IMG/VR virus record: IMGVR_UViG_2541047873_000001
Length of the DNA: 64,000 bases
From: a virus
Taxonomy: Duplodnaviria > Heunggongvirae > Uroviricota > Caudoviricetes
Reading direction: 5' to 3' (one strand)
Within the stretch, counting starts at the first letter, position 1. Every line of letters begins with the position of its first letter. Below the pieces are notes generated by a model. That model searched no databases. It was not told the origin of the DNA and saw only the letters and a list, made by a program, of their open reading frames with translations. Shown in pieces: positions 3,608 through 45,554 of the stretch. The translations under genes were made by a program, and so were the position numbers.

Positions 3608-3625
3608 ATATTAATTTTCTAATAC
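3608..3625. promoter_or_regulatory. C1 operator-like site
   Basis: attaattttctaataca, one mismatch from the recurring 17-mer AAATTAATTTTCTAACA; sits ahead of the gene preceding pacA, as P1 Op88 sits ahead of lpa. Confidence 0.45.
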
Positions 3626-8038: not shown

Positions 8039-8056
8039 TATTCCTACTCGATTTAG

Positions 8057-8067
8057 TTTTCTAACAT
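8057..8067. promoter_or_regulatory. C1 operator-like site (c1 promoter region)
   Basis: ttttctaacat core; a second inverted copy (tattagaaaa) lies at about 8131-8140. Confidence 0.45.
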
Positions 8068-9446: not shown

Positions 9447-9463
9447 ATTAATTTTCTAACAAT
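9445..9463. promoter_or_regulatory. C1 operator-like site
   Basis: taaattaattttctaacaa immediately after the recombinase stop; the 17-mer recurs at 24982-24998. Confidence 0.45.
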
Positions 9464-19288: not shown

Positions 19289-19319
19289 TGTTAGAAAATT
19301 AAAATCAATATTCTAACAC
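19289..19319. promoter_or_regulatory. pair of C1 operator-like sites
   Basis: tgttagaaaattaaaatcaatattctaacac: two inverted copies of the TTCTAACA core between two leftward operons. Confidence 0.5.
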
Positions 19320-20566: not shown

Positions 20567-20838
20567 TTTGTTTTCTCCTGTCTGAACATCACTATCATCA
20601 GGTCGCCTTTTGTCGCTATCCTGGCTGTTGTACCTGGTTCAATGCGGCTAAGCTCAAATGCGTCATAGAACGCTTCTAATGCCTTCTGGCGTAGTTCCTG
20701 TTTGCGCCGTTTTTTCCACTGTTTTAGGAAAATGGAACCCAGCCATCGCCATGTACGGGACATGATGTAAAGCCAACCGAGAAGTGCCAGACCGGTATTT
20801 AGGAGCGTATCGATCGTTATTGTCGTGTCGATATTCAC
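20563..20838 (-). CDS. small membrane protein
   Basis: 91 aa with one transmembrane helix (TLLNTGLALLGWLYIM) and basic stretch. Confidence 0.45.
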   Translation of the reverse strand: MNIDTTITIDTLLNTGLALLGWLYIMSRTWRWLGSIFLKQWKKRRKQELRQKALEAFYDAFELSRIEPGTTARIATKGDLMIVMFRQEKTK

Positions 20839-21545
20839 TGGCTGCCTCCTTTGCGAAGCTGTTCAGCAATACTTACGCATATCTCTGCGCCTCTAATCAG
20901 CCCCGGAACGTTCTTGTTTGGCCCAACTTCACCATCGACAAAATCAATCATCGCGTTACGAGCCATATCCACGCCCTGCGCACGTACTTCAGCCAGGAAA
21001 GCATCGGTGGCTGGGGTGTCAACACGGATACTGTCGCGCAAGATGAAAAATGCATTGAGCATTCCAGTCTCTGGCACTTCATCCTGATGCTTCTCATACG
21101 CATCAAGAGCCTTCATCATCTCAGCTCCGAATGGTTGAGGGTGCACAGACTTCAGCTCCGCATTCTCCGCCGCCAGCACCACGCGTTCGCTCTCCAGTTC
21201 TGTAATGCGCCGTCTTGCAGCATCCAGTTCAATCGACAATTTTCCCAACTGCTCTTTATGCTTCTTGTATTCCTGATATGCGTGCCAAGACTGACCTTTG
21301 CGCACACTATCCGTGATATCAGTAATCTGTTCTGGTGTTAGCGTGGTCAGTGGCTGTGCTGGGAAAATCAGCACTTTCCCGGCATCCCAATCAAAACCCA
21401 CCTGAATTGACTGAACCTCAACTGATGGTGTTGAACCGATGCGACCAGGCGAATGAACAACGATCGTTACATTCATATCGCGACGATGGCTGTGGTTGTT
21501 GGACAAAATACGATTCACCAACTCCGAGAATTTGGAAAATTTCAT
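20835..21545 (-). CDS. Ea22-like coiled-coil protein
   Basis: C-terminus ...[10 protein letters not shown] shared with the 22550-23224 product (…AQLRKGGNQ); coiled-coil centre. Confidence 0.55.
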
Positions 21546-21907
21546 GCTGATTCCCTTTGCTCTTCCTGGATAATGTTGTTGCAATCTTTCACGCACTCGT
21601 TGCAGATGAAAACGTTGTCCCCGGCAATTAACTTTTTAACGGTGTGCTGGGATTTGTTGCAGAAGCTGCAATAAAGCGTTGGACTGGCTGATACGGATGG
21701 TGCGCCAGATGTCAGCCGCGCGATGTCGTTCTTGCGACGCAATATCACACGGCTGCACTCGACCAGCATCTCCGGGGATATATCCTCCTCCGTGGCGAGC
21801 GCCTCCAGACGTTCGAGCAAGCGAAATACTTTTTCCTGGGTGATTGCAGAATGCGATGTGGTCATCTCACTCTCCTTTGAGGCGAATGCCAGCGGCACGG
21901 GAATCAT
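21542..21907 (-). CDS. small protein with ClpX-type zinc-binding domain
   Basis: 121 aa; C-terminal [35 protein letters not shown] matches the ClpX N-terminal C4 zinc-binding domain. Confidence 0.6.
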
Positions 21908-22553
21908 TCCATCGCTTTACTTCTTCACGAATTACGTCAATGCATTCTTTCGAATCCATTAGGTAATCTTCATCAAAAAGCCTTTCCTGTTCGTTTTCTA
22001 TCGCAACAATGATTGCTTCAACTAACTTTTGTGCCTGAGAACCACTTTCTAACTCTGCAATGCGCTTCTCTGCGGCTTCCAGCTTCTCGCGCATATCGTC
22101 AACGTACTCGACCAGAGATCCGCCAGCAGGAATTTCGCACTCCTCGACCAGTTGGAAGTAGATATCAGCTGCGGCCCGTGTGTTGCTATGCCTAGCGTCG
22201 CCCATCTCACCTTCACGAAGAGCATCGCGTTCGGCGGTAAGATTGGCTATTTTGCTGTCTTTGCCTTCAAGCTCAACGCGCAGCTTCCCTACCGTTAGCG
22301 CAATATCCTCGTTCTCCTGGTCGCGGCGTTTGATGTATTGCTGGTTTCTTTCCCGTTCACCCAGTAGTGCCAGCACGGTTTCTGGTCCGGCCAGAAATTT
22401 GAAGGCGTTGAGCGCATCAATATCCACACCGTAATCTTTAAGTTCCTGTTCACTTAACAAATCATCATCAGCTGGCAACATTAACAGGCGTTCCATTGCT
22501 GGAATTGCACGTTCCGCCGCCTCACGCAGTGCCTGGTAATTAATTTCGCTCAT
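21867..22553 (-). CDS. Ead/Ea22-like protein
   Basis: 228 aa; N-terminal [16 protein letters not shown] paralogous to the 16679-17410 product. Confidence 0.65.
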
Positions 22554-23224
22554 TGGTTGCCTCCTTTGCGAAGCTGGGCAGCGAACCTATCAGCTGCATC
22601 CGCGCAAGCAGAAGCAACGGAATCAAAAAATGGATCATCTCCTGTATCGCGCATCGTCAAAGCGAATGCCTCCACCCCTTGTGCCTGTATTTCTACAAGG
22701 GATGCCTTAGATGTACTGCTTTTCGCCTCGCCTAATTCGTTATGAGCGATGTTCGCTATACATGCGATGTCTATATCTGGATGATTAATTGGGCAATGGC
22801 TAAGAATTGCCTCAAGTGCTGCTTTTTTGCTTTGGCATTCCGCCACCAGCGCCCCGCAATTGCTTTCCAGCTCTGCAATACACTTTTTAGCGGCCTCCAG
22901 CTCAACACGCAGATTCTCAAGCGTTAGAGCCTTCTCCACGTTCTCGTCCAGCAGTTCAATCACATCAGGATCGCTACCATCAACTACTGATATGCGCGAA
23001 TTTTTGTAATGCTCGTCAGCATAAGTTCGTCCAGTTTTGAAGCATCCGTCATCCTCCATGCCGGAACAGGCATAAACAACATGTGATCCAGATATGCGCT
23101 GCATTGACATTTCCTCGCCACAAACAGGGCATTTAGGCGCTGGTTTCGGTGAATAACGTTCACGTAACGGATAGTAAAGCTCGATCTCCGCCAGTTGCTC
23201 TGGCGTTAAACCTTCAGACTTCAT
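22550..23224 (-). CDS. Ea22-like protein with N-terminal zinc ribbon
   Basis: 224 aa; CPVCGEE...C..C motif, coiled coil, Ea22-type C-terminus. Confidence 0.55.
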   Translation of the reverse strand: MKSEGLTPEQLAEIELYYPLRERYSPKPAPKCPVCGEEMSMQRISGSHVVYACSGMEDDGCFKTGRTYADEHYKNSRISVVDGSDPDVIELLDENVEKALTLENLRVELEAAKKCIAELESNCGALVAECQSKKAALEAILSHCPINHPDIDIACIANIAHNELGEAKSSTSKASLVEIQAQGVEAFALTMRDTGDDPFFDSVASACADAADRFAAQLRKGGNQ

Positions 23225-24166: not shown

Positions 24167-24335
24167 AAGTTGATGAGAGCAAAGAGTTCAATGCCCAGCT
24201 CAAACAACGCCAGGACAGTGAAAAACAGGGCATATAGCAACCCAATTTCTGTACCGGATTGCTGGTGGATTGCACTTATTGCGACAAGCATCATGACCTC
24301 CTGATATAGCGTCTGAAAAAAAGTATCTTCATTTT

Positions 24336-24367
24336 GTGTTAGAAAATCAATTTTGATTTTCTAACAC
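24336..24367. promoter_or_regulatory. palindromic double C1 operator-like site
   Basis: gtgttagaaaatcaa ttttgattttctaacac: perfect 32 bp palindrome of two operator cores between the leftward operon and ref. Confidence 0.6.
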
Positions 24368-24411
24368 ATTTGATCAACCATAGCGGCGATGTAGACAAAC
24401 CGGGTATTTCT

Positions 24412-24987
24412 ATGAAGCAAAGCTATTGGGAGAAACAGACACAAAAAGCCCTGCAAAAACTGGCTGATCCGAAATGGCGGGAGGAACAAAGGGCAAAGCG
24501 TCTTCAGCAAGCTCAACGCCAGCAGCAGCGTGCGCGAGAAAAAGCCGCATCGCCTGAATATCGGCAAAAGAAAATTGAAAAAGCGAAGCAATATGAACAG
24601 CGAAGAAAAGAGAAGGCCGCTTCTGCTCCTGTCAAAAAAACTCGCGCGTCACGCGGCCTGAAAGGCAGAACACTCACAGCAGATGAGCGCCGGATACAAA
24701 CTGCCATCGGTGCTCTCCCCTGCATTGCCTGCCATATGCACGGACAGCATAGCCCTGTGGTATCCCTGCACCACATCTTCGGAAGAACAGCAGAGAACGC
24801 GCATAAATACGTCCTCCCTTTGTGTAAATGGCACCATCAACACGCAGCGCCAGCAGAGATCCGCGAGCAATACCCCTGGTTGGTTCCTGTTCATGCTGAT
24901 GGAAAAATAGGCGGCAAAGCAGATTTCAGGCGGCACAATGCTGATGAAATGACGTTGTATCAGATGGTGACTGAATTAATAAATTAA
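24412..24987 (+). CDS. ref: Ref-like HNH endonuclease (recombination enhancement function)
   Basis: Lys/Arg-rich N-terminus then HNH core GALPCIACHMHG...SLHHI.GRT...PLCKWHHQ resembling P1 Ref; operator-controlled as in P1. Confidence 0.7.
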   Translation: MKQSYWEKQTQKALQKLADPKWREEQRAKRLQQAQRQQQRAREKAASPEYRQKKIEKAKQYEQRRKEKAASAPVKKTRASRGLKGRTLTADERRIQTAIGALPCIACHMHGQHSPVVSLHHIFGRTAENAHKYVLPLCKWHHQHAAPAEIREQYPWLVPVHADGKIGGKADFRRHNADEMTLYQMVTELIN

Positions 24988-25592
24988 TTTTCTAACATTT
25001 TAAGTTGAATTATGAGATCCACCGTTGTACATTCACAACCGATTGGTACACCGGTCAACTTTTTGAGACAAACCGTTTGGTTTTTCGTATGATTGCCGCC
25101 GCCATACCAATGGCGGTGCAATATAGGTGGCTGAAAAGCCCCCGTTGACTCACGGTGTTCCAGCCTTTATTGCGCCGCCACCAGACCGTGGAACAGTCGA
25201 TGGCGGCTCCGAAAGCAAGGAGTCACTACACTATGAACAGCTACTGTCTTTTCCCATCACTCGTTGTCCGCCACTCACGCGATAATCTGCATTCTTTACT
25301 CGCGCTGGGGGTGTCAAAATGACCGTTCGCTACCTCAACTTTCAAATCCAGAACATCACTGGCGGTTGCTATGACTGGTTTGTCACTCTCGGAAAAGAAG
25401 TGATCACCGGGAAGCTGGATGAAGTGAAAGCTAAAGCAATGGCCTACGCCTGCAAGCAAGCCCAAAAGAAGAAAAGAAAAGCATAAGAAAACACACAGTT
25501 GCGCCCTGGCATTATCGTGGGGTATATTTCTACGGCACCTTAGAAAAACGGGTGCCGGGATTGGAACCCCGGATAATGCAAAAGGCGACACA

Positions 25593-36100: not shown

Positions 36101-36117
36101 GTTTTATTTTCTAACAC
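36101..36117. promoter_or_regulatory. C1 operator-like site
   Basis: gttttattttctaacac ahead of the rdgC operon. Confidence 0.5.
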
Positions 36118-43302: not shown

Positions 43303-43485
43303 GGCTCCTGAAGCCAGATGTCCTGGCTGTCAGCTTCTTCGAAACCGTGACAGACGTTAAAGTCACTCAAGCGATACTGGCGCTGACGGCCTCTATTTCG
43401 CTCATGCCAATGCATATATCCACCAGCAAATTGAACCGCCCCGGGAATCCTGGAGACTAAACTTCCTGAGAAAGAGGTAAACAGG

Positions 43486-43812
43486 ATGACTAAAAATACT
43501 CGTTTTTCCCCCGAAGTCCGTCAACGGGCAGTCCGTATGGTTCTGGAAAGTCAGAGCGAATATGACTCACAATGGGCGACAATTTGTTCCATTGCTCCAA
43601 AGATTGGCTGTACGCCGGAGACTCTGCGTGTCTGGGTTCGCCAGCATGAGCGGGATACCGGGGGCGGTGATGGAGGGCTCACCACCGCTGAACGTCAGCG
43701 TCTGAAAGAGCTGGAACGTGAAAATCGTGAACTGCGCCGCAGTAACGATATCCTTCGCCAGGCTTCCGCTTATTTTGCGAAGGCGGAGTTCGACCGCCTC
43801 TGGAAAAAATGA
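43486..43812 (+). CDS. IS629 transposase OrfA
   Basis: 108 aa HTH/leucine-zipper protein, recognised as IS629 OrfA by eye. Confidence 0.9.
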
Positions 43813-44699
43813 TGCCACTGCTGGATAAGCTGCGTGAGCAGTACGGGGTCGGACCGCTATGCAGCGAACTGCATATTGCCCCGTCAACGTATTACCACTG
43901 TCAGCAACAGCGACATCATCCGGATAAACGCAGTGCCCGTGCGCAGCGCGATGACTGGCTGAAGAAAGAGATACAGCGCGTATACGATGAAAATCACAAG
44001 GTATACGGTGTGCGTAAAGTCTGGCGTCAGTTGTTACGGGAAGGTATCAGAGTGGCCAGATGCACTGTGGCACGTCTCATGGCGGTTATGGGACTTGCCG
44101 GTGTTCTCCGGGGTAAAAAGGTCCGTACGACCATCAGCCGGAAAGCCGTTGCCGCAGGCGACCGCGTAAACCGTCAGTTCGTGGCAGAACGACCTGACCA
44201 GCTGTGGGTGGCTGATTTTACTTACGTCAGCACATGGCGGGGCTTCGTCTATGTGGCGTTCATCATTGATGTGTTTGCCGGATACATCGTGGGGTGGCGG
44301 GTCTCATCGTCCATGGAAACGACATTCGTGCTGGATGCACTGGAGCAGGCGTTATGGGCCCGTCGACCGTCCGGCACGGTCCATCACAGTGATAAAGGTT
44401 CTCAGTATGTATCGCTGGCCTACACACAGCGGCTTAAGGAAGCCGGATTACTGGCATCAACAGGAAGTACAGGCGACTCGTATGACAACGCGATGGCGGA
44501 GAGCATCAATGGTCTTTACAAAGCGGAGGTAATACACCGTAAGAGCTGGAAAAACCGTGCAGAAGTGGAACTGGCCACACTCACGTGGGTGGACTGGTAT
44601 AACAATCGACGATTGCTGGAAAGGCTGGGCCATACTCCTCCGGCAGAAGCAGAAAAAGCTTATTATGCTTCCATCGGAAACGATGATCTGGCAGCCTGA
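43809..44699 (+). CDS. IS629 transposase OrfB (DDE catalytic domain)
   Basis: 296 aa in the -1 frame relative to orfA, overlap at the A-rich aaaaaatg region consistent with programmed frameshifting. Confidence 0.9.
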
Positions 44700-45081
44700 G
44701 TTCACAGATAAAACACTCTCCAGGAAACCCGGGGCGGTTCAAATGCCAGCGGACAATCGCTATAGTCGATGTAGCCAATACCATTACCCAAACGCGCTTC
44801 GCGCGCCCCGGCTTTCCAGGACAGCAGAAAAGAGTCACGATCTGCCAGCATGACTACAAAATCATCTGGATCGCCTATGCAGTGAAGAATGCCTGCCTTG
44901 CATAACTGTTTGAGTGCCTTGGACTGACTCAGGATGTCTTCACCGTAATACTGAAAACAATCATCAACAATAGCGGGATAGCCAGCGGGTGGATTCAGGC
45001 TGGTTGGTATAGCTGACGCGATAGCCAGCATTAAACGATATTGTGTTTTCGATGGGTTCGCGTGACTCATGTTTCCTCTAC

Positions 45082-45490: not shown

Positions 45491-45554
45491 TGTTAGAAAA
45501 TTAAGATTAAACCATACTAACACAAGATTGTTAACGAAAATTATTTTTCTAATG
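45491..45554. promoter_or_regulatory. C1 operator-like sites in divergent promoter region
   Basis: tgttagaaaattaag (inverted) and ttttctaatgc cores between the leftward operon and the capsid gene. Confidence 0.45.

Follow-up and report, generated by a model that had tools for sequence, protein, structure and literature searches.

Many proteins of phages and plasmids, lambda O among them (PMC7804408), and host regulators including sigma-S, FtsZ, and UmuD' have their stability set by the AAA+ protease ClpXP. The N-domain of ClpX, a zinc-binding domain (ZBD), must be present for lambda O, MuA, FtsZ, and delivery by adaptors and is not needed for ssrA tags, MuA being named as an N-domain-dependent ClpX substrate in the papers cited (PMC5415555, PMC7804408). 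Specifically, residues F16 and I46 mark a hydrophobic patch that is bound by lambda O, trigger factor, and adaptors (PMC7804408). Moreover, the ZBD dimerises alone, and the isolated domain, supplied in trans, inhibits the RssB-dependent degradation of sigma-S (PMC7226468). A counterpart of this domain, detached from ClpX, is encoded by a D6-like (P1-related) phage-plasmid of E. coli represented by the IMG/VR virus record IMGVR_UViG_2541047873_000001, whose 64,000-nucleotide stretch is the window analysed here: a 107-aa protein combines a ClpX-type ZBD at its C-terminus with a three-helix N-domain peculiar to its own family.

A preliminary description placed the gene at 21542-21907. The minus-strand open reading frame (ORF) of that extent exists and codes for 121 aa when counted from its first ATG, but its start is more probably the ATG at 21865. 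The first 42 nt of the 121-aa reading overlap the upstream gene, and the residues that it adds are not conserved in the relatives, which start variously or straight at MTTSHS. The conserved start is the ATG at 21865 (MTTSHS...), which yields 107 aa and is the start used by RefSeq (WP_021551796.1, 107 aa) on a plasmid that is 100% identical across the region. Since this start is preceded by an AAGGAG, coincides with that of RefSeq, and excludes the non-conserved residues, the gene is taken as 21542-21865, probably its true extent, and the extension of the maximal ORF to 21907 is probably untranslated. The AAGGAG sits within the final codons (K-G-E) of the gene upstream; the TGA that ends this gene occupies 21867-21869. 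The features of the gene are as follows, residue numbers being those of the 107-aa form throughout.

21542-21865, minus strand: coding sequence of the 107-aa protein with the ClpX-type ZBD, stop codon included (RefSeq start; upstream extension not conserved)
21872-21877, minus strand: Shine-Dalgarno sequence AAGGAG, 6 nt ahead of the ATG at 21865 (read from the sequence)
21710-21844, minus strand: family-specific three-helix N-domain (AlphaFold2 model, profile and fold searches, conservation)
21677-21709, minus strand: linker, residues 53-63, of low model confidence and with no visible constraint in its evolution (AlphaFold2 model, omega)
21560-21676, minus strand: ClpX-type ZBD, residues 64-102, with the Zn ligands C66, C69, C88, and C91 (Pfam, PDB, identity, fold)

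The reading of the C-terminal 40 or so residues as a close match to the ClpX ZBD, carried by a phage as a free-standing copy, is upheld, and the match lies far beyond chance. The Pfam family PF06689 (zf-C4_ClpX) is matched by residues 65-101 over profile positions 2-39 of 39, scoring 64.2 bits where the gathering cut-off is 27 (E=9.8e-18), and the best sequence matches in the PDB are the ClpX ZBD chains 1ovx and 2ds5 (E=1e-15 to 4e-15). Identity to E. coli ClpX residues 13-56 amounts to 30/44 (68%), and identity to ClpX ZBDs ranges from 68 to 71% over about 40 residues. The four Zn-ligand cysteines (C66, C69, C88, C91) follow the CxxC-x18-CxxC spacing of ClpX and do not vary in any member of the family or in ClpX. 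In an AlphaFold2 model built from 18 family sequences (mean predicted local distance difference test score, pLDDT, 78.8), the C-terminal domain forms a beta-hairpin and a helix, and Foldseek superposes this predicted domain on the solved ZBDs 2ds5, 2ds6, 2ds8, and 1ovx with a root-mean-square deviation of 1.7-1.9 Å over 36-38 residues (probability 1.00). The identity and the fold match together mark a specific ClpX-type ZBD rather than the generic zinc ribbon that had been considered in its place. The phage protein is predicted to bind zinc and to dimerise. Full-length ClpX is not matched: the NCBIfam models NF003745 and TIGR00382, whose cut-offs are 359 and 371 bits, give scores of 47.5 and 43.6, with matches confined to model positions 5-50 (5-47 for the 47.5-bit match). 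The protein is not a ClpX, and by its sequence it lacks the AAA+ ATPase module with its Walker motifs, pore loops, and IGF loop.

The ZBD is preceded by predicted helices at residues 10-26, 31-43, and 45-52 and by a low-confidence linker, and this architecture of three-helix N-domain, linker, and ZBD is fixed across the family. The full length of the protein matches PHROG 6797 with an E-value of 1.1e-56, its residues 1-106 being aligned to positions 1-106 of the 107-position profile, and the layout is held down to about 50% identity in gp19 of phage P88 and in a Salmonella protein (P0041), and down to 27% on a viral contig (L156). When residues 1-62 were searched against 1.84 billion representatives, the N-domain always came with a ZBD, truncated or frameshifted copies aside. 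Its occurrence in other architectures was therefore discarded, the matches lacking a ZBD being truncated copies and low-complexity or repeat artefacts (P0040, P0042). The second of these is a 190-aa predicted protein with three repeats of about 59 aa, each resembling residues 33-57 of the N-domain and linker (LILKRKGDVRRLTNGAPRG), and is probably a spurious ORF across tandemly repeated DNA. Neither profile nor structure comparison recognised a DNA- or protein-binding fold in the N-domain, and the protein has no match to the Ead/Ea22-like family PF13935 at E<=1. Rearranged forms are nonetheless found, also at loci L096, L097, and L099: in a natural chimera (P0022), an Ea22-like coiled-coil N-terminus is joined to a ZBD identical to that of the window, while in 120-aa forms (P0001, P0003, P0008, P0017) the first 7 residues are swapped for an Ea22-type leader (MKSEGLTPAQLAERNAEL). 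Given these chimeras and fusions, recombination breakpoints lie inside the gene.

A position-by-position comparison was made with 80 genuine clpX genes, a sample drawn from a scan of genome contigs and biased by the search pattern; all 80 loci run on into the AAA+ module. Members of the phage family share, with little or no variation, the Zn ligands and the counterparts of ClpX S15, F16, I28, G30, I35, V40, C43, and I47. Specifically, the equivalent of F16 (F68 here) is invariant, that of I46 (I98 here) is kept as Ile or Val across the family, and the VKKLIAG strand is retained in the phage protein.

The domain identity, architecture, conservation, distribution, and operon context are direct observations, from which a link of the phage protein to ClpXP may be proposed. 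The reading put forward here, tentatively and with a confidence somewhat short of even, is that the protein acts as a ClpX N-domain mimic that modulates the substrate choice of ClpXP. It would be made early after induction or infection and form a dimer of the ZBD type, and its ZBD would occupy hydrophobic peptide motifs that usually go to the N-domain of ClpX itself. Either N-domain-dependent clients would then be shielded from ClpXP or, with the help of the conserved N-domain of the phage protein, a specific partner would be linked to those clients, for which phage or plasmid replication and maintenance proteins are the candidates. The stability of the antitoxin Phd of P1-type plasmids is under ClpXP control. 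The suggestion that a free-standing copy could titrate ClpX adaptors or substrates, or redirect proteolysis, is plausible by analogy, because the isolated E. coli ZBD blocks RssB-dependent sigma-S degradation in trans (PMC7226468), and its simplest form is weakened by the AGDN loop described below and by the conserved N-domain. Since the docking loop and nearby helix residues are changed and an extra conserved domain is present, a specificity-shifted bifunctional modulator is more likely than a plain adaptor sponge. The most far-reaching version of this proposal, namely a dedicated trans-acting paralogue of the ClpX N-domain, borne by temperate enterobacterial phages and phage-plasmids, that would use its own targeting domain to reprogramme ClpXP degradation in early lytic development, is somewhat less likely still.

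Several lines of evidence weigh against a mimic of the ClpX N-domain, and the first comes from the surface of the ZBD. G18, E23, P31, L42, and D45, invariant or nearly so in the 80 ClpX sequences, are changed or variable in the phage family, and R25 (Arg in 74 and Lys in 6 of the 80) is mostly Lys. The protein of the window departs from ClpX by G18N, E23T, R25K, P31D, S32N, D41K, L42D, D45N, and R48Q; this clade has Asp at L42, a position that is invariant in ClpX and precedes I46 by four residues in the predicted helix. The loop A29-G30-P31-S32 of E. coli ClpX, equivalent to A81-G82-D83-N84 here, is presumably the counterpart of residues SSTR 120-123 of human CLPX, as judged from the equal CxxC spacing and the human sequence. 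In human CLPX, SSTR 120-123 is the mutated "adaptor-docking loop" (PMC7647994). All 80 ClpX sequences read AGP(S/T/N) at this loop (P31 in 80/80), whereas the phage protein reads AGDN; position 31 is Asp in nine, Glu in three, and Pro in five members of the phage family, with AGPS kept in the P88 clade. Conservation thus extends to the fold and to the marker residues of one ligand patch, but the phage ZBD surface, as far as its sequence tells, is not under the constraints of ClpX. With the docking loop altered and other ClpX-invariant surface residues changed, a plain SspB-type adaptor decoy is unlikely for this clade, and the specificity probably differs from that of ClpX.

The second line comes from the evolution of the gene. 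Against P88, omega is 0.19-0.24 overall and 0.23-0.33 in the ZBD half. Among close relatives, most pairs give a pairwise omega of 0.15-0.3 for the N-domain (up to 0.9 at very small counts), 0.4-0.9 for the ZBD core (with values above 1 confined to a few tiny comparisons), and at least 1 for the linker. The ZBD core thus outpaces the N-domain in most close pairs, which fits a scaffold role as well as a changed specificity. No single pair makes this contrast significant (Fisher p >=0.05), the pairs are non-independent, and the sequences show that allele types of the N-domain and of the ZBD have recombined, so that the stronger constraint on the N-domain is a trend, within a gene that appears real and constrained. 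Positive selection on the ZBD was considered for the few pairs with omega of 0.9-1.9 and set aside in view of the tiny counts, the non-independent pairs, the recombination, and the Fisher p >=0.05. A pure decoy would not need the N-domain, so that its conservation weakens the simplest decoy form. Lastly, trans-inhibition by the E. coli ZBD took a 10-30-fold molar excess in vitro (PMC7226468), the early expression that the proposal assumes is read from the positions of operator-like motifs, and no functional study of the family turned up in literature searches on phage-encoded ClpX ZBDs, PF06689, and its RefSeq name.

The same observations bear on a ClpX-independent role, in which the ZBD would serve as a zinc-stabilised dimerisation module and the N-domain would be the active part. 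The dimer might, for instance, use it to bind nucleic acid or a protein of the phage or host, and the likeness to ClpX would reflect ancestry and not a shared partner. Such a scaffold explains the conservation pattern about as well as the N-domain mimic and is nearly as likely. It accords with the N-domain being the more constrained half in most close pairs and with the loss of ClpX-invariant surface and docking-loop residues in a domain that keeps its Zn ligands and core. It also accords with a report in the literature of ClpX-type zinc fingers in unrelated architectures such as sigma factors. Moreover, the DNA of the phage ZBD does not point to a recent host capture: clpX is absent among the blastn matches listed, and each chromosomal match listed bears the annotation "ClpX C4-type zinc finger protein". 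Conversely, the capture is evidently old, and for a mere scaffold an identity of 68-71% is then high; the F16/I46 equivalents of the exposed hydrophobic patch are retained together with the VKKLIAG strand, and no DNA- or protein-binding fold is recognisable in the N-domain.

A hijack of the machine through mixed dimers is improbable. The phage ZBD would pair with the ZBD of a ClpX subunit and place the phage N-domain on the hexamer as a new substrate receptor or a plug, so that proteolysis would be redirected or blocked from within. ClpX ZBDs do act as dimers (PMC7226468), the phage domain keeps the residues of the fold core, and the conserved second domain that an adaptor-like molecule needs is present here; however, the C-terminal helix, which may or may not lie in the dimer interface, carries the most substitutions (D41K, L42D, D45N, R48Q), and ClpX ZBD dimers are described as constitutive, so that exchange would have to be co-translational. 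A decaying fragment or mosaic by-product devoid of function, which the highly mosaic region, the chimeras, the truncated or frameshifted copies (P0022, P0043, P0045, P0046), and the 120-aa fusions might suggest, is scarcely credible against an exact protein present on at least 975 public contigs, an architecture kept over three element types and down to 27% identity, an overall omega below 1, a good Shine-Dalgarno sequence, and tight translational coupling.

The element that carries the gene is a D6-like phage-plasmid, in agreement with the preliminary description, which had assigned the gene to a phage. A near-identical 90-kb E. coli plasmid has ref, icd, hot, humD, and phd/doc flanking the gene, and in the window's structural half, 69% of 24 kb aligns with phage D6 at 81% identity. 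The family occurs in three settings, namely D6-like phage-plasmids (87-97 kb), 106-113 kb phage-plasmid-like replicons that are also found in phage records (e.g., PhiR41_1), and P2-like prophages, and in all of them the gene recurs at early or replication-proximal positions. In P2-like (P88-type) prophages, including those of UTI89 and O55:H7 CB9615, the order gpA (replication endonuclease), ParM, ParR-like gene, and ZBD gene is fixed. A ParM/ParR-like pair that directly follows the replication endonuclease, always with the ZBD gene next, was seen in three P2-like loci (L003, L166, L167), and an actin-type segregation system inside integrated P2-like prophages is unexpected. A copy of the gene is present in about 195 of 5426 complete E. 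coli genomes (~3.6%), roughly half on plasmids and half on chromosomes; many E. coli copies sit on phage-plasmids.

The sequence is already catalogued, in RefSeq and as PHROG 6797 (function unknown), and databases name it "ClpX C4-type zinc finger protein" (RefSeq) or, in older records, "carboxylate--amine ligase", a label that is evidently mistaken. What is new here is the fixed architecture, the occurrence in three element types, the coupled operon with an operator-like site, and the changes at positions that are invariant in ClpX.

The genes around the ZBD gene form a minus-strand run that begins with a small ORF, a DUF4406 gene, a gene for a DNA-binding protein, and two Ead/Ea22-like genes, continues with the ZBD gene, and ends with a 236-aa gene, a DUF4752 gene, two small ORFs, and a metallophosphoesterase gene. 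The junctions are 1-nt gaps or ATGA/GTGA overlaps, and the run is therefore regarded as one translationally coupled transcription unit. The closest neighbours are the following.

22550-23224, minus strand: second Ead/Ea22-like gene, 224 aa, PF13935, with a CxxC...C zinc-ribbon-like insert
21867-22553, minus strand: upstream Ead/Ea22-like gene, 228 aa, PF13935, with its stop 1 nt ahead of the start of the ZBD gene
20835-21545, minus strand: downstream gene, 236 aa, with a conserved N-domain of about 110 aa (phrog_6026) and an Ea22-like C-terminal half; its start overlaps the stop of the ZBD gene (ATGA)

The placement of the gene among Ea22-like genes, also noted beforehand, is confirmed by the PF13935 matches of both upstream genes and by phrog_368, which the downstream gene shares with them. 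The Cys-rich insert (PKCPVCGEEMSMQRISGSHVVYACSGMEDDGC) in the Ea22-like protein of 22550-23224 looks like a second, unrelated zinc ribbon within the operon. Equivalents of the downstream gene in other loci (L007, L092-L098, L101, L116) join the phrog_6026 N-domain to differing Ea22-like coiled-coil or C-terminal modules. This gene was considered as a conserved partner and rejected: it is ATGA-coupled in most D6-like contexts, in large plasmid-like contigs, and in a chromosomal copy, and it is absent from D6 itself and from P2-like prophages. Since no neighbour is common to all three element settings, the ZBD protein looks like a self-contained module. The Ea22-like proteins end in conserved tails (...IRIKGE, ...LRKGGSQ/GGNQ) whose codons take in the next gene's AAGGAG (21867-21880, 20835-20850, and other junctions), and part of their apparent protein conservation is therefore attributed to a translational-coupling signal. 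For the same reason, namely that these codons hold the Shine-Dalgarno sequence of the next gene, the idea that the tails are XB-like docking peptides for the ZBD was rejected as their main explanation. A search for known anti-phage defence systems in PADLOC-DB with the products of the ZBD gene and its nine neighbours (10 proteins, E<=0.01) returned no family.

The head of the operon is marked by a palindromic operator-like motif that is dispersed over the window.

24335-24368, no strand: perfect 34-bp palindrome TGTGTTAGAAAATCAA-TT-TTGATTTTCTAACACA between the divergent ref gene and the operon head, a candidate bivalent repressor operator
19289-19302, plus strand: single copy of the motif just beyond the last operon gene (metallophosphoesterase), at the same position in D6
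3611-3624, 8053-8066, 9448-9461, 24984-24997, 36103-36116, and 45491-45504: other sites of the motif

The half-site TGTTAGAAAATYAA occurs at 9 sites in the window at <=1 mismatch, against 0.07 expected, and phage D6 carries the motif at three matching relative positions. The operator of P1 C1 was discarded as the control site: its consensus ATTGCTCTAATAAATTT has no match in the window at up to 3 mismatches, and the element carries the different, dispersed motif instead. This motif probably represents a D6-type set of immunity operators for a C1-type repressor of the element itself. P1 ref is operator-controlled. By analogy with P1 and from the positions of the motif, the operon is probably repressed in the plasmid state and made early in lytic growth; the ZBD gene, as part of a coupled operon headed by a palindromic operator-like site, would share this early lytic timing.

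The region is strongly mosaic. The backbone of the phage-plasmid also contains an IS3-family insertion sequence (~43430-44743; orfA 43486-43812, HTH_Tnp_1; orfB 43809-44699, rve) that is 99-100% identical to a 1.3-kb segment in phage 21 and in many Stx-phage records.

If the proposed mimicry holds, a phage could bias ClpXP control simply by carrying a copy of ClpX's docking domain. It would amount to domain mimicry against a host AAA+ protease lacking a characterised precedent, for the literature searched holds no characterised phage factor that copies the substrate- or adaptor-docking domain of ClpX, and its fast-changing ZBD surface would speak of a retuned or contested specificity. Should the protein prove to be a scaffold instead, the analysis corrects the history of the "carboxylate--amine ligase" annotation and defines a conserved two-domain phage family. 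In either case, a known ClpX module is placed in a new architecture, within a small, abundant protein that is amenable to existing ClpXP assays.

Compared with known systems, the closest relation is to the N-domain of ClpX, with which the phage protein shares the CxxC-18-CxxC site, 68-71% identity, the predicted fold, the residues equivalent to F16 and I46 of the hydrophobic patch, and the VKKLIAG strand. In contrast to ClpX, it has no AAA+ ATPase, its ZBD stands at the C-terminus, not the N-terminus, behind a three-helix domain unrelated to ClpX, and it has AGDN for AGPS, Asp at L42, and changes at G18, E23, D45, and R48. In mode of action, the proposal is comparable to the anti-adaptors IraD, IraM, and IraP, which occupy a docking surface so that RssB cannot pass sigma-S to ClpX, and the binding sites of the ZBD and IraD on RssB overlap (PMC7226468). 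The Ira proteins, however, have no sequence relationship to the phage ZBD protein. Among phage factors, T4 PinA and T7 Gp4.5 are inhibitors of Lon. Like the proposed modulator, they are small early proteins that modulate a host ATP-dependent protease, but they are not homologous to the ZBD protein and target Lon rather than ClpX, and neither copies a domain of the protease that it targets. Other free-standing phage ZBDs of the ClpX type are encoded by an ORF of Caulobacter phage Cr30 (L004 2486-2725) and by the gene for an 86-aa protein on a viral contig (L139); unlike the present family, both lack the three-helix N-domain, and they are probably independent acquisitions. The Cr30 ORF comprises 79 codons and the ZBD only, and its record annotates just the 3' part (gp170, 41 aa). 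The nearest relatives in the full sense belong to PHROG 6797 and have the same two-domain architecture, namely orf93 of phage D6 (83% identical) and gp19 of phage P88 (about 50% identical), the P88-type members differing in that they keep the AGPS loop and are placed after gpA-ParM-ParR in P2-like prophages.
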